NCBI GenBank assembly: GCA_041660605.1 | Contig: JBAZWB010000001.1 | Span: 750,503 to 814,502, forward strand | Direction: 5' to 3' | Length of the DNA: 64,000 nucleotides | DNA from: Patescibacteria group bacterium | GTDB taxonomy: Bacteria > Patescibacteriota > Patescibacteriia > UBA10025 > JAHIVO01 | Part shown: in pieces, positions 1,553 through 46,590 of the stretch | Layout of the letters: every line of letters starts with the position of its first letter | Position numbering within the stretch: position 1 is the first letter of the stretch | Notes under the pieces: generated by a model | Database searches by the model: none | The model's input: only the letters and a program-made list of their open reading frames with translations | What the model was told of the DNA's origin: nothing | Made by a program: the position numbers and the translations under genes

Positions 1553-2944
1553 TTAACTGGCTGCTTTGGCTGCTAGCACTACAAAAAACGTTTTTAATAC
1601 TATCTGTAAATCTAATTTTGGAGACCAATTTTCAATATAATAAATATCTAGTTTTGCCTCATCCTCAAATTTTAAATCTGAACGTCCGGAAATCTGCGCT
1701 AAACCGGTCATGCCAGGCTTAATGGTTAAAAGCTTCTTATGCCAGCTTTCGTATCTGGAGACCTCTTCCGGCTCGTGCGGACGCGGTCCGACCACGCTCA
1801 TTTCCCCTTTTAAAACATTAATTAGCTGAGGAAATTCGTCCAGGCTGGTTTTTCGCAGAAATCTGCCCACGCGGGTGATGCGGGGATCATTTTTTATTTT
1901 AAACAATGGACCGTCGGATCTTTCATTTTTATTAAGCAGATCTTTCTTCAGTAAATGGGCGTTTTTTACCATAGAACGGAATTTATACAGAGTAAAAGTT
2001 TTGCCTTTAGCGCCTACCCGCTGCAGCTTGACGAATACCTCGCCCTGGGAATCAATTTTTATTAAAATTGCTATCAGCAGAAAAAATGGAGAAAGAATGA
2101 TTATGCATAAGGAGGAAATTATGATATCGAATATTCTTTTGAATATCCGGCCCCAGCCGTCAAGTCTCGTCCTGATAACTTCAATAATAGGTATATCAGC
2201 GATTGTCCGCACTTCAATGTGTGTTGGCTGGACTTCGAATAAATCGGTAGCGTATTTGAAAGTTATATGGTGTTCGCTGCAAAAATCCCTGATAAAAAGC
2301 ATCTGCTCCTTGGCCAATTGGGTGTCCAGCTGGATAATTTCATCGATTTGGACAGTTTTCATTTTTTCGGTCAATTGTTGCTGTGCGGATTCGTCAAATT
2401 GGTCAAAGCGAGTGATTATTTTATAGCCGAGGGAGGGAAATTTATATATTTGGCTGATAATGTCTTCCGTGGTCTGGTTCTTGCCGATAATCACGACATT
2501 ATGAAATCCGATGCCTTTTTTCAATAAATTTCTCTGAATACTGCGTACGATCAGGCGTCCCAAAGTTACCAATAATATTGACAGTCCCCAGCCGAATAAG
2601 ACGATAAAGCGGGAGGAAAAAAGCTCCCGCTGGAAAAAAATTATTATAATGACGATGGCAATGCTGGCCGTGCAACCAATAAAGATCGCAGTTACTTCAT
2701 CAAATAGGCGTCTCGTATTCTTTATGGCATACAAACCGGTTAAAGCGAAAATTATTAAAAAAACCAGCGGAACGAAAAATAATATATTGGCATAAGGCTT
2801 GAATATGATTTCGGTAACTACCGGCCTGAGATCGGTAAAAAAAGAAAAGAAACGTAACTGGTATGCAAAAAAGCCTGCCAGGATGATCATAAAATAATCA
2901 ACAGGTAATAAAACCACGCTAAATATTGATTCAGACTTGTTCAT
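1553..2944 (-). CDS. Polyprenyl-phosphate sugar-1-phosphate transferase (WbaP/'bacterial sugar transferase' family), initiating enzyme of EPS/O-antigen synthesis
   Basis: Multi-TM N-terminus. C-terminal domain FDIIISSLCIIILSPFFLLIAILIKIDSQGEVFVKLQRVGAKGKTFTLYKFRSM is the bacterial sugar transferase signature. Start trimmed to MNKSESIF (ATG at 2944). Confidence 0.85.
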   Translation of the reverse strand: MNKSESIFSVVLLPVDYFMIILAGFFAYQLRFFSFFTDLRPVVTEIIFKPYANILFFVPLVFLIIFALTGLYAIKNTRRLFDEVTAIFIGCTASIAIVIIIIFFQRELFSSRFIVLFGWGLSILLVTLGRLIVRSIQRNLLKKGIGFHNVVIIGKNQTTEDIISQIYKFPSLGYKIITRFDQFDESAQQQLTEKMKTVQIDEIIQLDTQLAKEQMLFIRDFCSEHHITFKYATDLFEVQPTHIEVRTIADIPIIEVIRTRLDGWGRIFKRIFDIIISSLCIIILSPFFLLIAILIKIDSQGEVFVKLQRVGAKGKTFTLYKFRSMVKNAHLLKKDLLNKNERSDGPLFKIKNDPRITRVGRFLRKTSLDEFPQLINVLKGEMSVVGPRPHEPEEVSRYESWHKKLLTIKPGMTGLAQISGRSDLKFEDEAKLDIYYIENWSPKLDLQIVLKTFFVVLAAKAAS

Positions 2945-2995
2945 TAATCGATATTTTTTAATAAGCCTAAGCAAACCTGTAAGCCGAATTCTGTA

Positions 2996-3040
2996 CCCCC
3001 ACACTAATAAATTGAAATTTTCAACTTATTAGTGTGGGGG
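2996..3040. repeat. GC-clamped hairpin/palindrome 1 (15-bp stem CCCCCACACTAATAA/TTATTAGTGTGGGGG, 15-nt loop)
   Basis: Perfect inverted repeat read directly. The whole 45 nt is nearly a perfect palindrome. Confidence 0.8.
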
Positions 3041-3093
3041 CGATGACCATCTATCTAGGCCCGATATTGCTATCGAGCTCAAGCAACCAACCC

Positions 3094-3155
3094 GCCCCAC
3101 ACCAATTCCATTTATCAACTAGCAAATATATCTATAAACAGAATTGGTGTGGGGC
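3094..3155. repeat. GC-clamped hairpin 2 (15-bp stem GCCCCACACCAATTC/GAATTGGTGTGGGGC, 32-nt AT-rich loop)
   Basis: Perfect inverted repeat. Same outer clamp as hairpin 1, different inner stem. Confidence 0.8.
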
Positions 3156-3244
3156 CTATTTGGTTTTGCACCGGATAGGGTTTTTCATACTAGCCAGTCG
3201 CCTGGCCAGCCTGTGAGCTCTTACCTCACCGCTTTTCACCCTTA

Positions 3245-3318
3245 CCCCCACACCTTTCGCATCATCATTATATTATAGCTTCTCTTATTGAATTAGAGGC
3301 ATGCGAAAGGTGTGGGGG
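3245..3318. repeat. GC-clamped hairpin 3 (18-bp stem CCCCCACACCTTTCGCAT/ATGCGAAAGGTGTGGGGG, 38-nt loop)
   Basis: Perfect inverted repeat. Same outer clamp, different inner stem. Confidence 0.8.
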
Positions 3319-3456
3319 CGGTATTGTCTCTGTGACACTCTCCCTGGACTTCAAATTTTTAAAATGCTATAGCACTTTCAAAAATCTTACTTCCGGTCGC
3401 CCTTAGCGACTACCCGCTTCTCCGGCTTATTAGCCGGAGGGTGTTCGGACTTTCCT

Positions 3457-3524
3457 CCCCCCACACCAATACGTAAAAATATATTCTGAAATAATGAGTA
3501 ATTCTAATGTATTGGTGTGGGGGG
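3457..3524. repeat. GC-clamped hairpin 4 (16-bp stem CCCCCCACACCAATAC/GTATTGGTGTGGGGGG, 36-nt loop)
   Basis: Perfect inverted repeat. Same outer clamp, different inner stem. Confidence 0.8.
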
Positions 3525-3577
3525 CGATCATCCAGCTTACTTAGGCTTAATTTTGATAATAGCGAAATAAGGGTATT

Positions 3578-3607
3578 TTGTCAACACCCAATTATACATG
3601 GTACAAT
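3578..3607 (+). promoter_or_regulatory. Candidate sigma70-like promoter for GDPD gene (TTGTCA-18-TACAAT)
   Basis: -35 at 3578-3583 and -10 at 3602-3607, 10 nt before the ATG at 3617. Confidence 0.3.
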
Positions 3608-3616
3608 AAAGAAAAT

Positions 3617-4303
3617 ATGCAAAACTTTTATAAAATCGGCCACCGGGGCGCGGCCGGCTACGCGCCGGAAAATACCCTGCTTTCCATTAAAAAAGCTTTG
3701 GAATTAAAAGTTGATGCTATTGAATTCGACATTCACCGCTGCCAAACTGGGGAATTAGTAGTCATCCACGATGAAAAAGTTGACAGAACCACCGATGGTT
3801 CAGGTGAAATCGTTAGAATGAGCCTGGAAAAAATTAAAACATTTGATGCCGGCCTGGGCGAAAAAATCCCGACTCTAGATGAGGTTCTGGATTTGATTGA
3901 CGGAAAATCAAAAGTAAATATCGAACTTAAAGGTAAAGGTACGGCCAAGCCATTGGCGGATTTGATCGTAAAAAAAATCGCCTCAAAAAAATGGGAATTA
4001 TCCGATTTTATCGTTTCATCATTCGATCGGCCTAAGCTGGAACAATTCCATGGATTAGCTCCTGATATTTGGACGGGAATCATTTATACCCGGCCTCGCT
4101 TATTTTTCCTGCAAAAAGCGAAAAAAATTGGCGTAAAATCCATCCACCTTTCAAAAAAATTCGTTTCACGGAAAATTACCGAGAAAATCCATTTGGCGGG
4201 GCTAAAACTTTTTATTTATACGGTTAATGAACCGGACGAAATAAAAAAAATCCGGCAGCTTAGCGTTGACGGCATTTTTTCGAATTTTCCTGATAGATTA
4301 TAA
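3617..4303 (+). CDS. Glycerophosphodiester phosphodiesterase (GDPD/UgpQ-GlpQ family)
   Basis: HRGAAGYAPENTLLSIKKALELKVDAIEFDIHRCQTGELVVIHD is the GDPD motif block. Start moved to MQNFYKIGHRG. Confidence 0.85.
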   Translation: MQNFYKIGHRGAAGYAPENTLLSIKKALELKVDAIEFDIHRCQTGELVVIHDEKVDRTTDGSGEIVRMSLEKIKTFDAGLGEKIPTLDEVLDLIDGKSKVNIELKGKGTAKPLADLIVKKIASKKWELSDFIVSSFDRPKLEQFHGLAPDIWTGIIYTRPRLFFLQKAKKIGVKSIHLSKKFVSRKITEKIHLAGLKLFIYTVNEPDEIKKIRQLSVDGIFSNFPDRL

Positions 4304-6278: not shown

Positions 6279-7984
6279 ATTACTTCAGACATTTTTAAAT
6301 CATTCATTTTCAATTGAAGCTCCTTGCTGCCGTTCCATTCATTAACCGATACTTCGAAAATTATGTCAATCATATCGCCGATTTTAAGCTCATTCCCCCA
6401 GCCATTACCAAACCCAAAAGCGATAACTTTTCTAGTAGTTGATTTTTGCTGCAGGACCAGGCGCAAATGCTTGCCGTCATTGCCGACTTTTTGCAGATCA
6501 ACAACCTCTAAGCGGTTAGCGATAAAATGCGGACTCGGGTTGCCCTCGCCAAACGGACCGAAATTTCCCAATTGAACTACGAGATCCCAGTCTATCTGAC
6601 TTAATTCCGCTTCGCAGTCGATAAAAAACTTTTTTACCATATCCTCTTTATTTATCAGCTTATCGGCCAGACTCTCCATCTTTTTCTTAAATTTTTCTAA
6701 ATTGCTCTTTTTCAGGGTAAACCCGCAAGCCGCCGCATGCCCGCCAAACCTTTCCAGCAATCCCCGCGAAGCAATCAATGCCTTGGTAATGTCGAAAGCC
6801 GGTATGGACCGCCCAGAACCGACTATTTCACCGTCTCTTTCTCCCATGATAATAACCGGCCGGCTATATTCATCTGCCAGGCGTCCGGCTACCAGTCCGA
6901 CGATGCCGACGGTCCAGTCTTTGCCGTTGGCGAATAATATTTTTTGGCTGGCTATTTTGCCTATCTGTTTTTTCGACTCTTTGACGATTTTATCGGTCTG
7001 CTGCTGCCTTTTTTTGTTGGTTTCTTCCAGCTGCATAGCCACCTTTTTCGCTACTTTAATGTCATTAGTCATCAGTAATTCATAAGCGGTATTGGCATGA
7101 TCAATGCGGCCGGCGGCATTCAGCCGCGGTACAATGCCGAAAGCCACACTGACGGAATCCAGGGTTTCAAGGCTGAAACGGGTTGAAGCAATTAATTCAT
7201 GCAAGCCCGGCCGACGGGTTTTTTTCAGGACTACCATGCCGTATTTTACCAGCGTCCGGTTTTCCCCGACCAAAGAAACGCAATCTCCGATCGTACCTAT
7301 AGCTACTAAATCAAGAAGCCATTTTTCAAAACCAGGCTCAAGTTTCTTGTTTTTATCCTCTCTGACCAGCGCTTCTGCCAGTTTGAAAGCTACTCCCACG
7401 CCGGCTAGATCCATATATGGATAATTATCACCCGGGACGCGGGGGTTGATAATAGCCAAAGCCTGCGGCAGCTCAGGCTGCGGTTCATGATGGTCGGTAA
7501 TAATCACATCAATGCCCTTCTCTCTCGCTGAATTCACTTCCTCCACATTGGCAATGCCGCAGTCAACGGTGATGATCAGCTGGGTGCCATTTTTTGCCAA
7601 TTCATTTACCGTCTTCAAGTTCATGCCGTAGCCTTCTGACATACGGTGCGGAATATAAACATTTACTTCGCCGCCCAGCGCTTTCAGCGTGGTGACCAGG
7701 GTAACGGTGGCGCAAACACCATCAGCGTCATAGTCGCCATGCACTGTAATCTTCTCTTTGTTCTGGATTGCCTGAAAAATCCTCTTTACCGCTTTGGGCA
7801 TGTCTTTGAATAAAAAAGGGTCGTGAATATCCTGCCCGTAATCGGGATTTAAAAACTCGTCTATTGATCCCTGACTTTTTAGCCCGCGATTAAACAACAG
7901 CTGCAATACAACCGGGCTGATTTCAGGAAATTTACTCTTAATTTCTTCTGGGATTGGCTTGGCAATCTGCCATTTTGTTTTCAT
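6275..7984 (-). CDS. recJ: Single-stranded-DNA-specific exonuclease RecJ (DHH/DHHA1)
   Basis: ITVHGDYDADGVCATV and ITDHH motifs, GGH C-terminal domain. Start trimmed to MKTKWQIAKP (ATG 7984), 14 nt after a minus-strand TATAAT (7998-8003). Confidence 0.85.
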   Translation of the reverse strand: MKTKWQIAKPIPEEIKSKFPEISPVVLQLLFNRGLKSQGSIDEFLNPDYGQDIHDPFLFKDMPKAVKRIFQAIQNKEKITVHGDYDADGVCATVTLVTTLKALGGEVNVYIPHRMSEGYGMNLKTVNELAKNGTQLIITVDCGIANVEEVNSAREKGIDVIITDHHEPQPELPQALAIINPRVPGDNYPYMDLAGVGVAFKLAEALVREDKNKKLEPGFEKWLLDLVAIGTIGDCVSLVGENRTLVKYGMVVLKKTRRPGLHELIASTRFSLETLDSVSVAFGIVPRLNAAGRIDHANTAYELLMTNDIKVAKKVAMQLEETNKKRQQQTDKIVKESKKQIGKIASQKILFANGKDWTVGIVGLVAGRLADEYSRPVIIMGERDGEIVGSGRSIPAFDITKALIASRGLLERFGGHAAACGFTLKKSNLEKFKKKMESLADKLINKEDMVKKFFIDCEAELSQIDWDLVVQLGNFGPFGEGNPSPHFIANRLEVVDLQKVGNDGKHLRLVLQQKSTTRKVIAFGFGNGWGNELKIGDMIDIIFEVSVNEWNGSKELQLKMNDLKMSEVI

Positions 7985-35982: not shown

Positions 35983-38856
35983 TTACAAATCGTATTTCTT
36001 GCCTTCTTTTGCCGTATTCTTGGCGATAGGAACAGTCACATGGAAAGCCGAGCCCTTGCCCAGGCCTTTGGATTCCACCCAAATCTTACCACCGTGCGCT
36101 TCCGCCAACCGGCGCGCTACGTACAGACCGAGGCCGGAGCCGTCCGGATTCACCTGGGCAATACCGAAACCGCGCACAAATTTGGTAAAAAGCTTATTTG
36201 CTTCATGCTGAGGAATGCCGCGTCCGGTATCAGCTACGATAAAATGGATAAACTCCCCTTCCTGCTTTGTGCTTAGCGTGACACTGCCCTTGTCAGTATA
36301 TTTTATGGCATTATCCGTTAGATTCATTACCACATCACCAAATTTATCGGCATCAGCCATAATTTTTGGCAGGAGTTTTGGCTCTTTTTTATAAGACAAT
36401 TTTAATTTCTTGTCATCAGCGGATTTTTGCACTACTTTCATGATATTGGCAATAATATCTTCAATCCGTAAAGGCATGCGGTTCAGCTCCATCTTGCCGG
36501 ATTCAATCTTGGTGACATTAAGAAATAAATTGATCAGCCTGATCATGCGCTGGGACTCATCAAGTAAATTCTGCAGGACTTTTTTCTGCTCTTTCGGCAC
36601 CTTGCCAAAGTCTTCCTGCAAAACCATGGACAGATAGCCCATAATGCCGGTCATCGGAGTCCTTAATTGATGTGAAGCAATGGAAACGAATTCTGATTTT
36701 GCCTGGTCCAGCTGCTGCAAGTGCACATTGGCCTCTGCTAATTCTTTATTAGTACCCTGCAGCTGGTGATACAGCTCAATGTTTCGATAGACAATGCCAG
36801 TCTGGTTGCACAAGGCTTTCATCATGGACAAATCAGTCTCTTTCAGCCCTCCCGGATCGCGGTCAAGCAGAAAATCTATGACGCCGACTATCCCCTCCTC
36901 AGAATATATCGGCACGGCAATGACCGCTTTTATATTAAGCTTAGCCTGTATCTGTTTCACTATTTCCGGAGGCACTGGCGGAGAAATAAATTCTGACAGA
37001 TCAGTACCGATCTGCACCTTGCCATGCTTGATGGCCTTAATAGAGCGAGTACTATCCTCCTTAAAATCCCCATAATATTCATTCATTGGCTTGGGCAGCA
37101 TTTTCAGCATCTCATCAATTTGTTTGCTGCGTGTTATCGCGTCAGGAAAAAGCTTATGCCGGTCTTTACCCAGAAATAACAAAATCCCCCCTAAGTATCC
37201 GAGCTCTGAAGAAATACTATCAGTAATTGCCTGTGTTACTTTTTTAAAATCCAACGTGCGTGTAATCAAATTAGTAACTTTCTGCAATGCCGACAGAAAA
37301 CGATTGTGCTCCTGCAATTGGATATTGGTACTGCGCAAGCCCTCGGTAGCCAAGGCCACTTCTTTTTTCAGTCTTTCTGTAAATTGCCGTGCTTCCTCAT
37401 ATAAACGGGATTTTTCCAGCGCCGACGCCAGTTGTGGACCGATTAATTTTAATAAATCCAAATCTTCAGAACCAAATGGATCGCCTGATAATTTCGGTCC
37501 TAAAACCAATATAGCATTCAGGTTATTACCAACCATGACTGGCGCCACCACCGCCGAGTCCAAAGCATCCAGGGCGGTTTTGGAGGCTTCTAGTTTTTTT
37601 CGTTCTGCCTCAACCTGCGTATCTTCTATTTTTCGCTCCAGCGCTTCCAATACGATAGTTTCATTTTCTTTTTTTAAATATGCAATCAACGGACTTTTAT
37701 GAGGGATTTTATTATGCAAATCCTGCCGAGCGGCCAGATCCATATCGTTTCCATTCTCATCAACAATTCTTTTGCCCTTTTCGTCTAGATTTCCCTTACG
37801 CTTGTAGAAGGCACCGCCCGCCACACCCGATAAATAGATACTGGCATTTTTTATTTTTAGTGATACTTCCAGCTTACGCGATAGAGCGTACAACAGCGTA
37901 TCCATATCAATTTCACGATTTATGATTTCTGAAAGTTCAGATAAAAGTTTCCTATAATCCACCTTTGCTTTAAAAAATAGTTGATCGGTGGCTTGGGCAA
38001 TGGATTTTTTTAGTGGATCTAAAATAAGTACAATAAAAATTGAAACAAAAATTGCTATTATTGATTTAGTTGTAATATTAACTCCTAGAATATCAGGTAA
38101 AAGGAGTGCTAAGCCAACAACAGCAGCGGAAATTAATAAAACCACGAGAGAATAGGTGATTGTTCGCAATATAACTAAGCGAATATCTAATAATTTATGT
38201 TTAATTATTGCATAAACTGACAATCCAACAAAGATTAAGGCGAATGGACTATCTAATGCTGAATATTTTTCATATCCAAGGGCAGGTAAAATTAAACTTA
38301 AAAACATCGAAATAAATCCAAAAGATGAAGTTCCAATTAAAATAAATTTATATTGAATCCGTTTCAAACGACTCCCTTTTTTATAGGCACCTAATAATAA
38401 AATAATGGGAATTATAATTGCAGAAGCGCTATAGATAGCATATAAATTAAATAGACTACCCTTTTGAAATGACGTAAATGGATTTGTTGAATCTAAATTC
38501 CCGACAACAATATAATCATTAACGAAAGGTAAAATTATAAATACAATTCCAATTATTATTACTATTAATCTTACAAGTTTATCACTTTTAGATATTCTTC
38601 CTTTAAAGTATAAAATCCAAATTATTGCAGTAATTGGTACTAGCGCTCCAAGTGAAAATGTTAATCTTAAAATGTAATAATTTATTACTACCCTTAATAA
38701 AAAATTTGAAAAAATCCATATACCCGTAATAAAGGCAAAAATTGCCAACGATATATTGATTTTATTTTTTTTATTTCTTCGCCAAACAAGTGCAGCAAGA
38801 AAAATATTTGCCAATGAAGCAATTAGCGTTAATAATGCGACCAAAAAAGTAACCAT
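35983..38856 (-). CDS. Sensor histidine kinase: N-terminal 7TM sensor, GAF domain(s), HisKA, HATPase_c
   Basis: H-box FVSIASHQLRTP. N, G1 and G2 boxes (NLTDNAIKYT, DTGRGIP, GSGLGLYVARRL). N-terminal 7 hydrophobic helices. GAF-like region ends ...IVYRNIELYHQLQ. Confidence 0.85.
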   Translation of the reverse strand: MVTFLVALLTLIASLANIFLAALVWRRNKKNKINISLAIFAFITGIWIFSNFLLRVVINYYILRLTFSLGALVPITAIIWILYFKGRISKSDKLVRLIVIIIGIVFIILPFVNDYIVVGNLDSTNPFTSFQKGSLFNLYAIYSASAIIIPIILLLGAYKKGSRLKRIQYKFILIGTSSFGFISMFLSLILPALGYEKYSALDSPFALIFVGLSVYAIIKHKLLDIRLVILRTITYSLVVLLISAAVVGLALLLPDILGVNITTKSIIAIFVSIFIVLILDPLKKSIAQATDQLFFKAKVDYRKLLSELSEIINREIDMDTLLYALSRKLEVSLKIKNASIYLSGVAGGAFYKRKGNLDEKGKRIVDENGNDMDLAARQDLHNKIPHKSPLIAYLKKENETIVLEALERKIEDTQVEAERKKLEASKTALDALDSAVVAPVMVGNNLNAILVLGPKLSGDPFGSEDLDLLKLIGPQLASALEKSRLYEEARQFTERLKKEVALATEGLRSTNIQLQEHNRFLSALQKVTNLITRTLDFKKVTQAITDSISSELGYLGGILLFLGKDRHKLFPDAITRSKQIDEMLKMLPKPMNEYYGDFKEDSTRSIKAIKHGKVQIGTDLSEFISPPVPPEIVKQIQAKLNIKAVIAVPIYSEEGIVGVIDFLLDRDPGGLKETDLSMMKALCNQTGIVYRNIELYHQLQGTNKELAEANVHLQQLDQAKSEFVSIASHQLRTPMTGIMGYLSMVLQEDFGKVPKEQKKVLQNLLDESQRMIRLINLFLNVTKIESGKMELNRMPLRIEDIIANIMKVVQKSADDKKLKLSYKKEPKLLPKIMADADKFGDVVMNLTDNAIKYTDKGSVTLSTKQEGEFIHFIVADTGRGIPQHEANKLFTKFVRGFGIAQVNPDGSGLGLYVARRLAEAHGGKIWVESKGLGKGSAFHVTVPIAKNTAKEGKKYDL

Positions 38857-40083
38857 CTACTTTAAAATTTTATATTTCTTCCCAAGTTTTTCAACGCATT
38901 CAAGAAGGTAATCTATATGTTTGCGTTCATGTAATGATGTAATGATATACCTTAGTCTTGCCATCCCCTTTGGAACTGCAGGCCATCTCATTGGGGGCAC
39001 ATAAATACCTAAATTAAATAAATCGTTAGAAAATTTGATTGCCACGCTTTCATTACCAATTAACATTGGAATAAGTGGTGTTTTAGTTTCAAGAGTATTA
39101 TAACCAATTTGATTTAATTTCTGAATTAAATAATTTGTATTATCCCATAATTTAGCAATTCTTTGCTGGCCTTCAACTGAATTTAAAATTTCAAGAATTT
39201 TCAATCCTCCCTCAGCGATTGAGGTCAAATATGTTCTAGAAAAAATATACGTCCTAGCTGTTACTTTTAAAAAATCAATTATCTCTTTTTTTGCACAGAC
39301 ACAACCACCGATCATACCAAATCCTTTTGATAAAGATGCGATATATATATCGACACCTTCATTTAAATTATAGAATTCCATTATACCTTTACCATGTTTA
39401 CCTAGTACTCCAATTGAGTGGGCATCATCAACTGCTAACAAACAATTATATTTCCTTGATAGCTTGACCATGGCTGGTAAATTTATTATATGGCCATCCA
39501 TACTAAATACCCCATCTGTCACAATTAAATTTCTTTTAGTTCTACCTTGTTTCAATTTATTTTCAAGGTCTTGTAAATCTAAATGATTATAGATAACTGT
39601 ATCATTTTTTGAAATTCGGCAACCATCAACTATTGTTGCATGATTTAATTCATCACTAAATATCGTTGTTTTTGTGTTACCAACATATAATTTTACAAAA
39701 AATAAAAAACTTTCTACAGGCAAATTTGTAATTGCCGGTATAACACCAGTATTAACAGCGGTAGTCGAACTAAATAAAATACAATCATCGTAGCCAAAAA
39801 AAATTGCCAATTCCTTTTCAAATTTTTCGTGAATTTTCCATAAACCTCCAACGAGTGGTGAATTAGAAGGATGTATCCCATATTTTAATATCGAATTTGC
39901 AACAATCTTTTTAATTTCAGGATGAGCAGATAAACCTAAATAATTACACGAATTAAAAGTTAATACCCTACTACCTTTCATCGTAAAAACGGGATCTTCA
40001 CTATTATCATCGATAACAGTCATAATCTCCGGATATAACCCCCCTTTATTGATCACCTTGAGTAATTTTTTAATTGTTTCCAT
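38857..40083 (-). CDS. Alpha-oxoamine synthase family PLP enzyme (8-amino-7-oxononanoate synthase / serine palmitoyltransferase / KBL-like)
   Basis: DDAHSIGVLGKHGKG and SLSKGFG (PLP Lys) motifs. Start trimmed to METIKKLL. Abuts the kinase stop. Confidence 0.75.
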   Translation of the reverse strand: METIKKLLKVINKGGLYPEIMTVIDDNSEDPVFTMKGSRVLTFNSCNYLGLSAHPEIKKIVANSILKYGIHPSNSPLVGGLWKIHEKFEKELAIFFGYDDCILFSSTTAVNTGVIPAITNLPVESFLFFVKLYVGNTKTTIFSDELNHATIVDGCRISKNDTVIYNHLDLQDLENKLKQGRTKRNLIVTDGVFSMDGHIINLPAMVKLSRKYNCLLAVDDAHSIGVLGKHGKGIMEFYNLNEGVDIYIASLSKGFGMIGGCVCAKKEIIDFLKVTARTYIFSRTYLTSIAEGGLKILEILNSVEGQQRIAKLWDNTNYLIQKLNQIGYNTLETKTPLIPMLIGNESVAIKFSNDLFNLGIYVPPMRWPAVPKGMARLRYIITSLHERKHIDYLLECVEKLGKKYKILK

Positions 40084-40470
40084 GTATTTTGTTTTTAATA
40101 GTGATTGATAATTACTTAAAATATTGTGAAAATAAAATTGTAACAAAGTTTAATTTATCATACCACATTTTTCATCTTTTTGCAAGTCCAATTATCAAAC
40201 AAAAAACCCAAATCTCGACTAATAATTGGGCATTTCTGAAAGAAAATTGAATTCATTATTTTTCTTTTTATTTTTCTGTTGCCTTTATTTTAGCACAAAA
40301 TTGCTAACCTATAAATACCAAAAAAACAAGCATCTTTGCCTGTGACCGCCCTTTATGCTATTAAATAATAATAATATTAATACTACATTTGCACGTACGT
40401 ACTATTCTTCAAATATTATATTAATAAATAAAATAATTTAGTCTGATAAAAAATAGCCAAAATACCTTAT

Positions 40471-41037
40471 TTAAATTAATCTAAAAGATTCCACCACTTC
40501 ATCGAAAACTTCATTATGAGAGTAATTTGTTTCTTCAGTTATTATGTAAATCTTTTTATTTTTTGAAACTACTATGGTTCTTTGATTAGTCGAATTACTA
40601 ATAAACTTTTCTGCTGTTTGCCCGGAAACTGTCTCACTGGACACTTTATAAGCCGAGAAATCATTTTTATCCAATAGTTCAATCAAAAGTACAATTGACT
40701 CATCTTTCTTCTGAAGCAGATAATTTTCTATTTCCAAATTATTATCATTAGAATAAACCGAAATGGTAACCTCTTCGCCCTCATTTGGCTGCTCGTACAC
40801 CGTTAAATTAATTGAGTTACCCTGTGGCAGATTATCAGTTTCCGTGTTTATTTGATAATCAGATGGATAAGAAAAACTGAAATAGTTTTCCGTATTGGAA
40901 TACGTTTTTAATTCAGTGTTATTGATACTTATTTGTTCTATTTTTGTTCCTGCCCCTCCTCTTAGCACTAAAAATCCAACTATAATTAAACCAGCAACGC
41001 AAATAATTATTGAAGTGATTATTAAATTTTTTTTCAT
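40471..41037 (-). CDS. Hypothetical N-terminally membrane-anchored extracytoplasmic protein
   Basis: Signal-anchor MKKNLIITSIIICVAGLIIVGFLVL. C-terminal ...EVVESFRLI resembles the next gene's ...EVISSFKLI. Confidence 0.45.
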   Translation of the reverse strand: MKKNLIITSIIICVAGLIIVGFLVLRGGAGTKIEQISINNTELKTYSNTENYFSFSYPSDYQINTETDNLPQGNSINLTVYEQPNEGEEVTISVYSNDNNLEIENYLLQKKDESIVLLIELLDKNDFSAYKVSSETVSGQTAEKFISNSTNQRTIVVSKNKKIYIITEETNYSHNEVFDEVVESFRLI

Positions 41038-41684
41038 ATATCAATTAATTTAAAACTAGAAATAACTTCTTCTGCCAACGGATTTGAATCTGTGTTTTCA
41101 TATACTATGCCAATGTGATAAAGCCAACCTTTGTTAATAAAATAATATTCTGTGGCATAATCTTTAACACCGCCGGTAAAATCAACCCTATCAGCTTCAA
41201 TACCGTCAGCCAATCTTTCTTTCCTGAATGTCCACTCCCCCTCGCCATACTGCTGGTTTAAATAGTCAGTAAGTGTTTCGTTACTAAATAAGCTACGAGT
41301 AAACTGAACCGCCGTTCCAGTTAAGCTCACCAGATTTTCATCCTCCGGACCTTTGCCCGAGCTTCTATAAAGCGGCTTGTCCGAACTTTCAACGCTGATC
41401 ATATTTCCGCTGTAAATTACCTGTTGTACGCCATTGACCACGACATTATCAACCGTGGTTCTCACATGCCACTCTTTTGGCATTTCGAAAGAAATCTGCA
41501 AATTGGGGTCTGTATAGAGATCACGGTCGGCACTTACTATCACTCGAGTAGCGTTATTTGAGGCAGAATTCGTCTGTAGATTGGTGTTGGTTTCGCCCGA
41601 GTTATTATTCGAAATAAAAAAATAAACACTTACTAATATTATTGCCACAATTATAACGCAAATTAAAATGTTTTTTTTAGTCAT
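41034..41684 (-). CDS. Hypothetical N-terminally membrane-anchored extracytoplasmic protein (paralogous C-terminus to 40471..41037)
   Basis: Start set at MTKKNILICVIIVAIILV. Overlaps the neighbouring genes by 4-8 nt (operon). Confidence 0.45.
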   Translation of the reverse strand: MTKKNILICVIIVAIILVSVYFFISNNNSGETNTNLQTNSASNNATRVIVSADRDLYTDPNLQISFEMPKEWHVRTTVDNVVVNGVQQVIYSGNMISVESSDKPLYRSSGKGPEDENLVSLTGTAVQFTRSLFSNETLTDYLNQQYGEGEWTFRKERLADGIEADRVDFTGGVKDYATEYYFINKGWLYHIGIVYENTDSNPLAEEVISSFKLIDI

Positions 41685-42903
41685 ATTGCAGCGAACTAAT
41701 AATATTTTCAAATTGTTTAACGCTTTCCGCCTCCTCATTAAATATCTGAAATTTTCCCGATTCAATTTGTCGGACAAAATAATCAAACTCACTTTCCTTT
41801 ACATTAATTACATTATTGTCCGTAGGGACATAGCCAAATATCGCTTTTTTAGAATTATCATCTTTGTTCCGAATAAAAACCTCACGCACTATAGTACCTG
41901 AATTTTCAATACCATAATCATATATAAATTCATAAAATGAAAATCCCTCGTAACCGTCAGGTACCTGCATAAATGGCTTACAAGCTGCGTACTTAAATGA
42001 AGGCAGATTAACCAACAAACTACAAAAATCTCCCGAATTGGATTGAAAGGGTTCCTGTCCAAGGAATGATAAAAAGCGTTCCGTGCCGCACAAAACGTCC
42101 TGCATTCCGTAACTAACCCATAAACCAACCCCCGTTTGCGTTTGAAAATATGATACCCGGCAAGACAAATCCACAGAATGTACGCTTTTATCATTTAGAG
42201 AATCAATATCCGCTTGAGTGAATTTAATAAAATCTACGGGTATTTCAATTTTTAGCAAAGAATATGGAAAACTTAATGTTCCCGTTTGTCCATTTAGGCT
42301 GTATCTGTAATAACCAAGTTCCGGGCGTGTATCCGGCCCTCGCGAAGTATCAAATAACAATTCTTTGCCTCCAGACGTTAAATATAATATATTACCTTCA
42401 ACTTTAGTGATTTCCACATCCGTACCAATCAAATTATCCGGATCTTCATACGAAATTGATGTTGCTGCTAACGGATCAAACGCGGTGATGTCTATATAAT
42501 GGAAACTATAATGATTTTCTTCGCGAATCTCCGAAATAAACCATAATCTTGTTTTGTTACTATTCCAAATAAAATTTCTATATTGAAAGTTAAAATCATA
42601 GGTACCATTAACCATTTCTGACAAATTATCCTGTCGATCATACATTGTTAAAATCTGCTTTCCATCGGATTTAATGGTATGCTCTAGATAATAGTTAGAA
42701 TCAGAAAACGCATACACCTGTGTATTGTTGGTCAGTTGATTAATATTATCTAATGAAGAATTGCTCATCTTATTACTTACATTATTAGTATAATCCTTAT
42801 TGATGCTGTCCTTATTTGTATCAACTATGAGTATAATTGCAAGAACAGCTACAATAAAAATAGCTATTAATATTAATCCTACTTTTTTATTTATTGATTT
42901 CAT
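41677..42903 (-). CDS. Hypothetical large membrane-anchored extracytoplasmic protein (408 aa)
   Basis: Signal-anchor MKSINKKVGLILIAIFIVAVLAIILIV. No family recognised. Confidence 0.45.
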   Translation of the reverse strand: MKSINKKVGLILIAIFIVAVLAIILIVDTNKDSINKDYTNNVSNKMSNSSLDNINQLTNNTQVYAFSDSNYYLEHTIKSDGKQILTMYDRQDNLSEMVNGTYDFNFQYRNFIWNSNKTRLWFISEIREENHYSFHYIDITAFDPLAATSISYEDPDNLIGTDVEITKVEGNILYLTSGGKELLFDTSRGPDTRPELGYYRYSLNGQTGTLSFPYSLLKIEIPVDFIKFTQADIDSLNDKSVHSVDLSCRVSYFQTQTGVGLWVSYGMQDVLCGTERFLSFLGQEPFQSNSGDFCSLLVNLPSFKYAACKPFMQVPDGYEGFSFYEFIYDYGIENSGTIVREVFIRNKDDNSKKAIFGYVPTDNNVINVKESEFDYFVRQIESGKFQIFNEEAESVKQFENIISSLQYD

Positions 42904-42998
42904 GCGAATTAAAATAAATAATTAGATAAAGATGATTTTAGAATGCGTGGTGGAAAAGGAGTGTTTCCCTCTTCCACCACACTTATGTGGGTAAATGG

Positions 42999-43673
42999 CT
43001 AATATTGCCACCAGTAGAAATCAATTTGGCAGGCATAATACTCTGAATCACACAGCGTCGGAATAACGGGATGTCCGTTGTTGTCATTGATGTTCTCGTA
43101 TCCAACAATATGCAGATGTGTTCCAATAGAATTTCCGGAATTTCCAGTTCTGCCGAGAAAAAAATGAGCCGGAATATTTTTTCCCACATAAACTCGCGAG
43201 TAGATGTAGGATAAATGCGCATAGCGTATGGCAACATGGCGAATTGGGTCATACACTACAACGGTATACCCATAGCCATTTTGCCACCCTGCGTAGATTA
43301 TTCTGCCTCCAAACCCGGCAAAAATCTGTATGCCATAATCTAAACCGTTAATTTGGTTTAAATCACGCGCATAATATTCCGCGCCCGAATGAGTGCTTAG
43401 CCGGCCATTGCAAAATGGTGCACCGATTGTAGAACCTGGGGTATTTGGTCCATCCCAACCAATCCAATCACCTTTCAGCTGTAATGATCCAAATGGCCAA
43501 GCCACAATCATTTTAGCCCCACGTTTTGATAACACTTCCACTGCCCCCACATCAACATCATTGAATTCAGCTTCCTTGGGCTGGGGATTACTGGCTTTGT
43601 CGGCTAGCTTCGAACAACCGACAACGAAAGCTAGGATTAGCGCCAATATCGTAATTAATCTGTGGTTCTTCAT
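42999..43673 (-). CDS. Lipoprotein with M23-family (LytM-like) metallopeptidase domain
   Basis: Lipobox LAFVVGC. M23 motifs ...HSGAEYYARD... and GRTGNSGNSIGTHLHIVG. GC-richer than neighbours. Confidence 0.6.
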   Translation of the reverse strand: MKNHRLITILALILAFVVGCSKLADKASNPQPKEAEFNDVDVGAVEVLSKRGAKMIVAWPFGSLQLKGDWIGWDGPNTPGSTIGAPFCNGRLSTHSGAEYYARDLNQINGLDYGIQIFAGFGGRIIYAGWQNGYGYTVVVYDPIRHVAIRYAHLSYIYSRVYVGKNIPAHFFLGRTGNSGNSIGTHLHIVGYENINDNNGHPVIPTLCDSEYYACQIDFYWWQY

Positions 43674-43855
43674 TTTCTCTTTGTTCCTTTCCTGAAAGGT
43701 AGTTTTGATTTCAAGTTGCGGTTTTTTAGGCTTTCAGAAAATACCCACGTGTTTTCCGAAAGCTGGTTGCTATTTGCCTCCCATGGTTATTGCCATAGAC
43801 ATGCTCCTTTGTTTACAATGAACGGTTTTTTAGGTTAATTAAAAACTATTTTATA

Positions 43856-44137
43856 TTAAACAAAAATTATTATTAATAATGACAGGACCACAAATAAAAG
43901 CCAATTAGCCAAAGCTCCTTGCGCATAGAACTTATAACTCTTGTTAGACAGCCCGAAAAAAGCTACAAAAAATAATACCCCACTTAAAATATAAGTTACA
44001 ATTGCTGGGAGGTCGATCTGTGATTTTGAAAATATGATTTTGAATAAATCTAAGGAAGAAAGCGCCGCAGCATACAGAAAAAAACCGACAATGCGTTCTT
44101 TTAAAAATATTTTTTTAAATTCAGTTTCCATATACAT
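43856..44137 (-). CDS. Small hypothetical membrane protein
   Basis: 93-aa ORF with two hydrophobic helices. Confidence 0.3.
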   Translation of the reverse strand: MYMETEFKKIFLKERIVGFFLYAAALSSLDLFKIIFSKSQIDLPAIVTYILSGVLFFVAFFGLSNKSYKFYAQGALANWLLFVVLSLLIIIFV

Positions 44138-44199
44138 AATATTACTAATTAATAATGTTGAGGGAAGAATTAGTTGTCTTCTTCCCTCTTCTCGGACCG

Positions 44200-44736
44200 C
44201 TAGCCCGTTATCCAGATGCCACCTGCCCAGGTGTGATTAATACAGAAACGACTGTAATGATAGTAATAGTACTGTGCCCAGAGATAGATCGGATATGCGT
44301 ATCCACTGCGAGACATGAGGTCAAGCATATAGACTGCTGATAGTTCAGAATAGCATTCCTTGTACCCCCACCAGTACCAATAAAACTCGATCTTTGCGAT
44401 CGCCGGAGACTCGTTCATCTCCTGAATCTTCTGATTAGCAATCGGAATTCCTTTCTGCAGATTGAGCACAGTTTCCAGATCAGAACCGGCAATCGAGCTG
44501 TGCGCGGCCTTGAATCCCGCTTCGTCAAAGACATACTGTCCGTCTTTGGTTTGGGTAACGTACGGATCCATAGCCGCAATCATCTGCTCATACTGAGCGG
44601 CCTTGGCCTGTTCTTTGGCAAACGGCTGTTCCGGTTCGCTGGCAACCGGGGCTTTCACTCCCGAACAGCCAGGCAGCAGGAACATGATGGCCAATGGAAA
44701 CGCCAACAATCGGTAAAGAAGTTTATGCTTCATCAT
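44200..44736 (-). CDS. Hypothetical lipoprotein, aromatic-rich C-terminus, GC-richer
   Basis: Start set to MMKHKLLYRLLAFPLAIMFLLPGCSG (lipobox LLPGC). Confidence 0.5.
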   Translation of the reverse strand: MMKHKLLYRLLAFPLAIMFLLPGCSGVKAPVASEPEQPFAKEQAKAAQYEQMIAAMDPYVTQTKDGQYVFDEAGFKAAHSSIAGSDLETVLNLQKGIPIANQKIQEMNESPAIAKIEFYWYWWGYKECYSELSAVYMLDLMSRSGYAYPIYLWAQYYYYHYSRFCINHTWAGGIWITG

Positions 44737-44939
44737 ATAGAGAAGCCTTTCAAAAACAGAATTTCCGTGAGTGCTTGATTGGCAAATAACAATCGTAAGA
44801 AGAGACCCACGTTTTCTCCCTACTAAAATCAATTAACTGTAACCTCTCTTTCTACCTGCGAAATGGCAAGTGGTTGGTATGGTTTAGGCTATCAATGAGC
44901 GATTATTTATGTTGGAAAAGGCTCTTATGCACATGTTTT

Positions 44940-44969
44940 GACGACGGCGAATGTCCGCGACGGCGCAAT
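44940..44969. repeat. Left GC-rich inverted repeat GACGACGGCGAATGTCCGCGACGGCGCAAT bounding the 7TM-GAF block
   Basis: Matches the reverse complement of 52881-52912 (GCGACGGCGCAAT-5nt-GCGACGGCGC) at about 85% identity. GC-rich 13-mer in an AT-rich spacer. Confidence 0.6.
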
Positions 44970-45128
44970 CAGATATAAATTTATTTACGAATAATCATTG
45001 ATATTGCTTATCATAATTTTTCATAAAAAATAACAGAGCGCCGTCAATCTTTTGCCCTGTTAATGTTCGTTTCTATCTTAATTATATCATTTTTCAATCA
45101 AACATTCAGCATCTAATAATAAAATTAA

Positions 45129-46580
45129 TTATTTTATTTTCCCAATCCTCTCAACTGCCTGTTTATAAAGCAACGCATTCGCAATCGCACCCGTCATCTG
45201 CGGCTGGAGACGATTTAAGTACTGAATATTATCAGAAGTAAAAGCTTCGTTATTATCTTTATTACCAAACAATAATAACCCTATTAATTCCCCTTTCTCC
45301 CCAATTGGCAGCATTAACCCCACTTTTAGATATTTCATCTCTTCATAAATATCTTTTAGTATTTGTGTTTCTCCGTTTTCTTCTTCTTCTATTATGTAAG
45401 GTATTTCTTCAATAATTAGGATTTTCGGATAATTGCGTAAATACTGAAATAATGGACTGCTTGGTGTAAATGTTATTTTCTTATCATCTGGGTAATAATT
45501 TTCCAGCTGGCCAGTTTTTTTGTTTTGCCAAATGAATTGAATTGTATTTACATTAAGATAATTGATTAATTCTATTGTTATTCTCTTTAGTAGCTGATCA
45601 AATTGCAGCGAAGAAGACATTATAGTTCTCAATTGGCGAGCTTTTTCTAATTGATTATTGTGCTTGGAATAGAATACATTATCAATTATTTTCACTAATA
45701 ACCTACGTAAAGGCTCGACAGTAAAGGCAATGATAACAATTAATACAATTGTAGTAGTTTGTTCTGACCAACTATATTGTTTCTCAAAATAACTCTTGGA
45801 AATAATAAGTAAATAAATGTAGAAAAAAAGAATAATTGCTAATGATAAAAAATGTATAAAACCTTTTTTTATAACAACTCTAATATCCATAAACCTATAA
45901 CGTATTATCGTGTATGTCATTAAAATTGCGATGACTATCGTTACAAGTGGCCCATAGGGGGATATTATGGCTTTATCAGATTCGATACCATGTGTAAACA
46001 ATATCGGATAAATTAAGTTTGTAAATAATCCGAAAATTGTAGCTATAATAAATGAAAATATAAGATACTTCGTTTTGATTTTTTCAATACCTGTTGATAT
46101 TGATTTTTGCTTGAATAATAAATAAAACCCTATAATAAAATAAGTGATAAGATAAAACCCATACATCTTATATAAAGAACCATAAACAATATCATTTATA
46201 GGCACTCCTAGTCTTATAATAACGTCTTTTGCTACTAGGTCAGTTAGGCTGATTATTGAGAAAAAAAATGAAACTAAAAATATTAGAACCTTGATACTTT
46301 TTTTAATTTTTAAAGTGTTTGGAAAATTTATCACTAAATTTACAAAGAAAAAAACTATTAATACAGGAAAGAAAAACAAAATTTTTAAATTAAAAGCTGC
46401 TATACTATATTGCTTTATTACACCATCTAACCAATTAAAGAGTATCCATCCGGAAGTTGCAATCATCAGTAGAAAAAAGTAAACATTCGGTTTTTTATTT
46501 TTCCCTTTCCACCATACAAAAAAGCCTAACGACAAATTAGCCACTACCACGAAAATTGAAATAATATCCAGTATTGTCAT
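45129..46580 (-). CDS. 7TM-GAF sensor-module protein lacking kinase transmitter domains (paralogue C)
   Basis: N-terminal 7TM like the histidine kinase at 35983..38856. Ends right after the GAF-like domain (...QPQMTGAIANALLYKQAVERIGKIK*). Start trimmed to MTILDIISIF. Confidence 0.7.
   Translation of the reverse strand: MTILDIISIFVVVANLSLGFFVWWKGKNKKPNVYFFLLMIATSGWILFNWLDGVIKQYSIAAFNLKILFFFPVLIVFFFVNLVINFPNTLKIKKSIKVLIFLVSFFFSIISLTDLVAKDVIIRLGVPINDIVYGSLYKMYGFYLITYFIIGFYLLFKQKSISTGIEKIKTKYLIFSFIIATIFGLFTNLIYPILFTHGIESDKAIISPYGPLVTIVIAILMTYTIIRYRFMDIRVVIKKGFIHFLSLAIILFFYIYLLIISKSYFEKQYSWSEQTTTIVLIVIIAFTVEPLRRLLVKIIDNVFYSKHNNQLEKARQLRTIMSSSLQFDQLLKRITIELINYLNVNTIQFIWQNKKTGQLENYYPDDKKITFTPSSPLFQYLRNYPKILIIEEIPYIIEEEENGETQILKDIYEEMKYLKVGLMLPIGEKGELIGLLLFGNKDNNEAFTSDNIQYLNRLQPQMTGAIANALLYKQAVERIGKIK
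45139..45209. repeat. 71-bp near-identical DNA repeat (copy 1) at the 3' end of paralogue C
   Basis: 70/71 identical to 46604-46674, while flanking coding DNA of the two paralogues is much more diverged. Confidence 0.8.
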
Positions 46581-46590
46581 ATACCTATAA

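Follow-up and report, generated by a model that had tools for sequence, protein, structure and literature searches.

Four peripheral helices of an RNase P RNA gene from a Patescibacteria group bacterium belong to one dispersed palindromic repeat family

What are four similar hairpins that stand side by side between two divergently oriented protein genes in the genome of a Patescibacteria group bacterium? They lie in a stretch of 64,000 nucleotides (assembly GCA_041660605.1, contig JBAZWB010000001.1, positions 750,503 to 814,502), which is called the window throughout this text. An initial annotation, made from the sequence alone, described them as free-standing GC-clamped hairpins of an unknown class filling an intergenic spacer, and attributed their intact pairing to selection on structure. 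Here, we show that the supposed spacer holds rnpB, an already known gene, which encodes the bacterial class A RNase P RNA. The four hairpins represent helices P3, P12, P16/17 and P19 of this RNA, and all of them are members of one family of palindromic repeats. The arms of these repeats covary, and the occupancy of the four helix positions is mosaic among related genomes. In our judgement it is likely that each of the four helices was built from one repeat resembling a miniature inverted-repeat transposable element (MITE), which is tolerated by the ribozyme and in which pairing is maintained by selection.

The hairpins are helices of an RNase P RNA gene

Concerning the identity of the gene, cmscan aligns the interval to Rfam family RF00010 with 212.9 bits (gathering score 100) and an E value of 1.2e-67, covering model positions 1-367 of 367. 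It is the sole Rfam match in the window at gathering thresholds. On the minus strand the core motifs GAGGAAAGUCCGAAC, ACAGAGACAAUACCG, UAAGGGUGAAAAG, GGUAAGAGC and ACAGAAUUCGGCUUA stand between the hairpins. The conserved core is completely represented in the alignment, including both P4 strands (GAGGAAAGUCC / ACAGAAnnCGGCUUA), J11/12, J12/13, L13 and P18, and the P4 pairing is preserved via CCGAA/UUCGG. The minimum free energy fold of the RNA reaches -261.7 kcal/mol (z = -13.5) and recovers P1-P3, P12-P14, P16/17, P18 and the 3' hairpin. A putative sigma-70-type promoter, which agrees with the consensus at 11 of 12 positions, ends 13 nt 5' of rnpB. Moreover, RF00010 matches of 179-196 bits are found beside homologous flanking genes in four syntenic relatives, the genome loci L013, L097 and L108 and the metagenome contig L209, which share about 68-70% nucleotide identity with the window over these flanking genes. 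In L013, L097 and L108 the sequence TTGACA-N17-TAT likewise precedes rnpB.

The gene is a member of RF00010 and has P1-P5, the P4 strands, J11/12 and P18 in common with the family. J12/13 (UAAGGGUGAAA), L13 (GGUAAGAGC) and the CGGGU stretch 3' of P16 are also kept, the last because the P16/17 hairpin lies between CAAAUAGG and CGGGUUGGUUGCUUGAG. The gene departs from the family in length, 580 nt against a model of 367 positions, with about 250 nt residing in four expanded arms. These arms have one common terminal sequence, and the native sequence of P3, P12, P16/17 and P19 is gone. The hairpins are therefore parts of a structural RNA and do not form a separate, new class of regulatory elements. 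Its location on the minus strand is why the initial annotation missed the gene.

The description of the hairpins themselves proved accurate: all four are found where they had been placed, with perfect stems of 15-18 bp and the outer clamp C4-6ACAC/GTGTG4-6. In coordinate order their arms measure 22, 22, 18 and 24 nt and are 95, 91, 100 and 88% complementary. The clamp 8-mer CCCCACAC occurs eight times in the 64 kb on both strands together, each time in one of the four hairpins, whereas 0.6 occurrences are expected; eight copies were reached in none of 100 shuffles. The inner stems, which had been described as different in every copy yet complementary, are indeed variable and paired. Yet they show some relatedness: in three of the four, YAAT adjoins the clamp. 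Two copies have the 12-nt sequence CCCCACACCAAT in common, and CCCCACACTAAT is found in a third. A recent duplication among the four copies of the window was considered and rejected: beyond the termini their pairwise identity is about 60%, which is noise for AT-rich loops. Helix assignment in the window follows the cmscan alignment (Table 1).

A palindromic repeat family inside and outside rnpB

The hairpins conform to an element with the termini C4-6ACACC-WWT...AWW-GGTGTG4-6. It consists of 9-10 invariant terminal nucleotides, about five covarying base pairs and an unconserved loop of 10-100 nt. It is small (26-135 nt, stems of 14-18 bp), ends in inverted repeats and has no coding capacity. 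We scanned metagenomes with a pattern made of both 12-nt termini (CCCCACACCWWT, 15-45 nt, AWWGGTGTGGGG), for which we estimate a chance expectation of a handful of matches only. The scan returned at least 127 hairpins on at least 119 contigs. Among the matches listed, about five (L135, L171, L209 twice), or about 4%, are located in rnpB; the other copies, about 96%, lie outside it in unrelated contexts.

Membership of the window hairpins in this family was established with a covariance model, named R1, which was trained on 35 dispersed copies, none of them from rnpB. With all filters off, R1 identifies the four hairpins of the window at 37-51.5 bits (E 2.5e-11 to 1.9e-07). Nothing further is found by R1 in the 64 kb, where the next best match has an E value of 1.9, and a 12-mer search that allowed two mismatches gave no further copies in the window either.

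The same 35 copies document the covariation. Their ten outer pairs are invariant. At pairs 11-16 there are 66 double-sided changes, compared to 23 in shuffles, and none of 500 shuffles reaches 66. Altogether 96.9% of the alignment cells are paired, as compared to 45-60% when the partner is slid. Arm positions 10-12 are complementary in 120 of 122 distinct copies. Orthologous P3 stems in the relatives differ by compensatory changes as well (TAC/GTA, TTC/GAA, TAT/ATA). The initial annotation had proposed that pairing is kept by selection while the sequence varies, and that a covariance model should reveal compensatory changes; on both points the data agree with it. The covariation of the arms is genuine, and it stems from a palindromic element that has been kept as helices of a ribozyme rather than from a new regulatory RNA.

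Occupancy of the helices differs between the syntenic relatives. In the window all four positions carry a clamp hairpin. L097 has clamp hairpins at P3, at P12 and, in degenerate form, at P16/17, together with a short native P19. In L209, P12 and P16/17 carry the clamp, P3 is native and short, and P19 is native and long. L013 carries the clamp at P3 and P16/17, with a native P12 and a long native P19, and L108 carries it at P3, with a native P12, no P16/17 and a long native P19. The native P12 of L013 and L108 is unrelated to the element, and at P19 the genes of L209, L013 and L108 share a single native hairpin, long and conserved, that is equally unrelated to it. Comparing filled with native or absent positions shows replacement rather than simple insertion. 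Since occupancy differs among these relatives, clamp hairpins were gained, or native helices replaced, repeatedly in the clade, of which the window is the extreme case. The clade contains 13 copies in about 100 kb, every one of them in rnpB.

Copies were also duplicated between helices of one gene. In L046, a Patescibacteria metagenome-assembled genome (MAG), the copies at P3 and P16/17 are identical at 131 of 132 positions, only when one of them is reverse-complemented, and their interior is not palindromic. The P3 and P16/17 copies of L013 share 83% identity, loops included. L117, an Uhrbacteria MAG, has two copies of about 130 nt with 74% identity. Near-identical and inverted copies within genes point to copying of DNA, with either orientation possible. 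Arms resemble each other at 6.3 of 10 positions within a gene and at 5.3 of 10 between genes (permutation p about 0.03). L117 harbours in addition an AT-rich palindromic expansion of about 150 nt in its P5-P9 region (L117:3185-3440, CCAAGCACCAAGCACCAAATACC...GGAATTTGGGATTTGG), which looks like a different repeat in another helix.

For the spread of the element we searched a genome collection for the 3' clamp of P3 fused to the P4 strand (GTGTGGGGN{0,3}AGGAAAGTCC); counts from the collection scans are lower bounds, and taxon labels are those on the MAG records. The sequence GUGUGGGG is found at the end of P3 in at least 119 genomes from many phyla. Among the 119 listed, 26 have AWWG before the clamp and thus the full terminus, compared to about 2 expected, and the remaining 93 are ordinary P3 helices ending by chance in GUGU and a G-run. 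Full-terminus P3 clamps occur in MAGs labelled as candidate phyla radiation (CPR), Omnitrophota, Nitrospinota, Planctomycetota and others. Outside the window, helices were placed by landmark patterns, and several divergent CPR genes were labelled 'other'. A further eight rnpB genes carry the element at two or three helices, and L109 has degenerate copies at several helices. In 38 loci, Rfam at gathering thresholds placed no other RNA family over the hairpins, and tRNA, tmRNA and rRNA were not seen as hosts. Six loci (L091, L109, L111, L072, L071 and L077) show the P4 strand and clamp hairpins in an rnpB that stays below the Rfam gathering threshold; apparently, large expansions of helices bring genuine RNase P RNA genes under the cut-off.

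Outside rnpB the element shows signs of mobility. Exact 4-nt direct repeats flank 38 of the 119 non-redundant copies listed, where 7.2 are expected and 500 shuffles gave at most 14. The flanking tetranucleotides are TAAA/TTTA (22), TATA (5), TCAA (3), CAAG/CTTG (3) and others; such variety would be expected of target-site duplications and not of a part of the element. Two copies lie in frame in protein genes. One of them (L159:8766-8833) encodes PPHQ...WCGG in the B3_4-B5 linker of PheT, and the other (L206:1961-2010) is found close to the N-terminus of an IF-2B/MtnA-family protein, its TAAA direct repeat being preserved. In about 41 of the copies listed, the hairpin is the centre of a larger composite palindrome, in which each of the conserved arms (...AACTTAnGG...ACGTAAGTTnTnTGnCCGAATTTAA[hairpin]) bears a small hairpin. 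An uninterrupted form of the composite palindrome was not found, and it has no match in Rfam. Several copies occur within a few kb on some contigs. Due to the 4-nt direct repeats, the in-frame copy in PheT, the composite palindromes and the dispersal, the element behaves like a MITE. Viral contigs contained no copies, and a phage vector is therefore unsupported.

Some variants of the repeat were observed besides. Partial or nested composite copies adjoin each other in L143, L185 and L196. L152:3971-4105, on a contig of 28% GC, consists of tandem units of about 35 nt (GTAAACCCCCACACCTTTTAAAAAAGGTGTCTAGG), each of which includes the element in a shortened form. Non-coding elements of about 310 nt occur twice, at L202:1404-1719 and L239:1321-1628; both have the same termini (CCCCACACCTTTCATATCAT.../CCCCACACCTAATTAGCAT...) and are flanked by direct repeats of 5-6 nt (GTTATC, TTGAC). 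They belong to the family as longer members and may stand nearer to a parent element.

Weighing the explanations

P3, P12, P16/17 and P19 are the most variable positions of bacterial RNase P RNAs, and any stable stem is acceptable there. A palindrome that landed at the base of such a helix would thus be tolerated, since the ribozyme needs only some stable stem at this place. The catalytic and specificity cores of the RNA are conventional. Under the explanation that we favour, rnpB would be transcribed from the sigma-70 promoter. The element would have come in either by transposition or through its identical C-run/G-run termini, by gene conversion or short-patch recombination, and would then have spread between the helices of one rnpB gene. 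Copies in rnpB would subsequently be preserved by selection for pairing, and intergenic copies would decay. As the copies sit at helix bases under pairing selection, the arms would stay complementary while their sequence drifts. The RNA would presumably be functional with the element copies left in place. The clamp resembles the C-rich/G-rich consensus base of the native P3 and P12 in Rfam. In view of this likeness, the exact start at the helix base and the lack of flanking duplications, we consider short-patch recombination or gene conversion at least as likely as classical transposition followed by trimming. Since the termini are inverted repeats, gene conversion could paste the interior in either orientation.

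Several observations weigh against this origin. All rnpB copies examined, including the four of the window, replace a helix exactly and lack flanking direct repeats. Copies outside rnpB are found neither in the window nor in about 36 kb of the relatives' loci, and the flanks of 100 labelled rnpB loci (745 kb) contain no significant R1 match outside rnpB; an active dispersed element is thus not evident in these genomes. Around solo termini in the loci examined, a parent element with these termini and a transposase gene was not found. The inverted pair of L046 represents either very recent copying or an artefact of MAG assembly. Moreover, the roughly 4% of listed copies that lie in rnpB exceed, by our estimate, the share of this gene in a 1-Mb genome about 100 times. 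Passive retention may account for the association with rnpB; alone, it may not explain the excess. The initial annotation had named, as one outcome that would contradict it, an untranscribed region whose copies are recent identical duplicates of a mobile element with target-site duplications. In part this is what is seen: dispersed copies with 4-nt repeats and near-identical copies within single rnpB genes do exist elsewhere. The copies of the window are neither flanked by repeats nor recent duplicates of each other.

A more far-reaching proposal is that the element is directed to rnpB, for instance by recombination or gene conversion that works through the C-run/G-run termini, overwrites the peripheral helices serially and copies between them in either orientation, or that it has been co-opted as a module of the holoenzyme such as a protein-binding platform. 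We regard this as possible and on balance rather doubtful. If it were correct, rnpB would be the preferred long-term residence of the element across several phyla and, in some lineages including that of the window, its sole one. It seems improbable to us that the clamp hairpin is from the outset a functional module of RNase P RNA, serving as a protein platform or in a stabilising or tertiary contact, that was selected repeatedly at several helices, with the dispersed copies being secondary, for instance offshoots of rnpB or targets of the same factor. Such a module would agree with the confinement of all 13 copies of the clade, and of all matches in the 100 labelled loci, to rnpB, with the exact junctions free of duplications, with the ten terminal base pairs that are invariant across phyla, with the roughly 100-fold over-representation of rnpB among the pattern-found copies listed, and with the likeness of the clamp to the base of native P3 and P12. 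In close relatives, however, native helices occupy these positions in all combinations, and the near-identical or inverted copies within genes, loops included, speak for copying of DNA. Most family members reside outside rnpB, often with 4-nt repeats and once in frame in PheT, and the stem would be an ordinary A-form helix lacking any recognisable motif for protein binding.

The fate of the RNA is a separate matter. Hairpins that replace helix tips of a structural RNA sporadically among relatives, with perfect stems of 15-18 bp lengthened by imperfect pairing, recall the intervening sequences (IVSs) of 23S rRNA, and such long AU-rich stem-loops might be cut out after transcription, RNase III being one candidate enzyme, so that the RNase P RNA would be in fragments joined through the GC clamps. 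Many copies measure only 26-45 nt, however, which is below typical RNase III substrates, and we consider such processing very improbable; it concerns only what becomes of the RNA and would be compatible with a MITE-like origin. An array of independent structured elements (small RNAs, attenuators, terminators or cruciforms) of unknown class, as first proposed, draws on the complementary arms with their variable inner sequence and on the location between divergently oriented protein genes. Since the whole interval is a complete RNase P RNA whose core motifs all stand between the hairpins, since the hairpins align to P3, P12, P16/17 and P19, and since relatives show the same architecture at the syntenic position with some helices free of the clamp, hardly any likelihood is left to it. 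Much the same holds for chance, by which C-run/G-run helices of RNase P RNA would have given four similar clamps independently. The C-rich/G-rich Rfam consensus of P3 and P12 makes chance clamps conceivable, as does the occurrence of GTGTGGGG directly before AGGAAAGTCC in at least 119 genomes of many phyla, 93 of the 119 listed being without the extended terminus. The eight clamp 8-mers in the window, the excess of the extended AWWG terminus (26 of the 119 listed), the detection of all four window hairpins at E 2e-07 or better by a model from non-rnpB copies, and whole-element identities of 83-99% within genes are scarcely reconcilable with coincidence.

Genomic setting and relation to known systems

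The glycerophosphodiester phosphodiesterase (GDPD) gene diverges from rnpB, and the sugar transferase gene follows downstream on the strand of rnpB. The start positions and orientations of these two genes had been given correctly; the divergent spacer between them is filled by the minus-strand rnpB. The background GC content, put at about 35% by the initial annotation, is locally about 41%. The start codon of the transferase (2944) lies on the shared strand 20 nt past the 3' end of rnpB (2964), and no terminator-like site is predicted in this gap (2944-2964). Read-through or co-transcription of rnpB and the transferase is possible. No tRNA or tmRNA genes were found across the 64 kb of the window. 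Far from rnpB, a low-GC stretch (35983-48006; 27-37% GC at 38-50 kb compared to about 42-47% elsewhere) holds three paralogous HisKA_7TM membrane proteins, and may be an acquired or fast-evolving island.

Table 1. Features of the window and coordinates of element copies in other loci
Feature	Position	Strand	Basis
rnpB, bacterial class A RNase P RNA gene, 580 nt	2964..3543	-	Rfam RF00010
Helix P3, element copy CCCCCCACACCAATAC...GTATTGGTGTGGGGGG	3457..3524	-	cmscan P3 columns, directly 5' of GAGGAAAGUCC; R1 48.8 bits, E 1.3e-10
Helix P12, element copy CCCCCACACCTTTCGCAT...	3245..3318	-	cmscan, between ACAGAGACAAUACCG and UAAGGGUGAAAA; R1 51.5 bits, E 2.5e-11
P16/P17 arm, element copy GCCCCACACCAATTC...GAATTGGTGTGGGGC	3094..3155	-	cmscan, between CAAAUAGG and CGGGUUGGUUGCUUGAG; R1 40.1 bits, E 2.8e-08
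P19-position helix, element copy CCCCCACACTAATAA...	2996..3040	-	cmscan, between P2 3' strand GGUCAUCG and P4 3' strand ACAGAAUUCGGCUUA; R1 39.2 bits, E 4.9e-08
P4 5' strand AGGAAAGUCC, universal catalytic core	3447..3456	-	Sequence and cmscan alignment
P4 3' strand ACAGAAUUCGGCUUA	2980..2994	-	Sequence and cmscan alignment
Putative rnpB promoter, sigma-70-type: TTGACA, 17-nt spacer, TATTAT	3556..3584	-	Consensus match
WbaP-like sugar transferase	1553..2944	-	Pfam Bac_transf 2.3e-68 plus CoA_binding_3
Glycerophosphodiester phosphodiesterase (GDPD), divergent from rnpB	3617..4303	+	Pfam GDPD 1.8e-40
HisKA_7TM paralogue, full GAF histidine kinase	35983-38856		
HisKA_7TM paralogues, other two	45129-46655; 46591-48006		
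L046, inverted 132-nt pair	2591-2722 (P16/17); 3010-3141 (P3)		
L138, composite palindromes (examples)	565-617; 3846-3898		
L234, composite palindromes (examples)	1284-1339; 7709-7761		

For annotation, these findings mean that a conspicuous 'orphan' hairpin array is an essential, well-known gene. Its four expansions of about 250 nt depress covariance-model scores, and rnpB genes of CPR bacteria are likewise missed at default thresholds, according to the portion of a CPR study considered here (PMC8172020). For RNA evolution, the gene would provide a natural example of ribozyme peripheral helices rebuilt from selfish palindromic DNA, and hence a concrete mechanism for the growth of structural RNAs in the manner of expansion segments. 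Regarding mobile elements, it adds a cross-phylum family of mini-palindromes with ten invariant terminal base pairs, covarying inner pairs, 4-nt flanking repeats and a strong association with rnpB. In the literature we found no account of palindromic or mobile elements that occupy helices of rnpB, and the substitution of one cross-phylum mini-palindrome for all four variable helices appears to be undescribed.

The closest described RNAs are those of CPR bacteria, for which the same portion of the CPR study, by Lui and colleagues in 2021, reports RNase P RNAs that have 'large extensions of helices', an extended P15 being one example, and that in consequence score below the Rfam threshold (PMC8172020). 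Several of the clamp-bearing genes likewise come from CPR MAGs and likewise stay under the gathering score. The difference is that the study, in that portion, ties the extensions to no shared repeat or mobile element (PMC8172020), whereas the extensions described here are copies of a palindromic family that is also present outside rnpB.

Other classes of repeats were compared by their defining features, and riboswitch and terminator arrays were considered and rejected. The initial annotation had recognised neither repetitive extragenic palindromic (REP) sequences nor clustered regularly interspaced short palindromic repeats (CRISPR) nor attC sites, and tests of termini and layout bear this out. 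The repeats are not CRISPR: they are inverted pairs with irregular start-to-start distances of 98-213 nt, and the 'spacers' are the conserved RNase P core. With integron attC sites the element shares imperfect palindromes of variable length that have conserved outer ends and a variable, structured interior. An attC identity was rejected, as the cores RYYYAAC/GTTRRRY are absent, no cassette array is present, and the copies are situated within an RNA gene.

In the rnpB of heterocystous cyanobacteria, repetitive sequences of the STRR type, short and tandemly repeated, were reportedly found by Vioque in 1997 in the variable helix P12, where they are said not to destroy function. They resemble the present case as a genome-wide family of short repeats in a variable rnpB helix. 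They differ from it in being tandem heptanucleotides, not palindromes with conserved termini, and in being restricted to P12 and to one phylum.

The small dispersed repeats (SDR) of Nostoc are said to have been described by Elhai and colleagues in 2008. Like these and like REP sequences and REPINs, as portrayed in the portions of two reports considered here (PMC3116915, PMC3733652), the element is a very small hairpin repeat that is dispersed, nested and without a transposase gene of its own. REP sequences are defined by a tetranucleotide, GTAG or CGTC, at one palindrome end (PMC3733652). The present element ends in C4-6ACACC / GGTGTG4-6, without such a tag at a palindrome end, and has 4-nt direct repeats, which REP sequences lack; an identity with REP or REPIN was accordingly rejected. 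The composite doublet forms of the element nevertheless resemble REPINs.

More similar in behaviour are selfish palindromes that are tolerated within genes. The Rickettsia palindromic elements (RPEs) are small, non-coding and selfish, measure about 100-150 bp, are restricted to Rickettsia and are tolerated in frame in genes. The copy in PheT that encodes PPHQ...WCGG in frame shows the same behaviour as the RPEs. In a comparison by description only, the present element differs in its size of 26-135 nt, in its occurrence across phyla and in its concentration in one RNA gene. The IVSs of 23S and 16S rRNA are excised by RNase III, and at different helices they normally have no common terminal sequence. 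Like them, the element forms an extra hairpin at the helix tip of an essential structural RNA, sporadically among close relatives. In contrast to them, four helices of the rnpB gene described here have one common terminal sequence.

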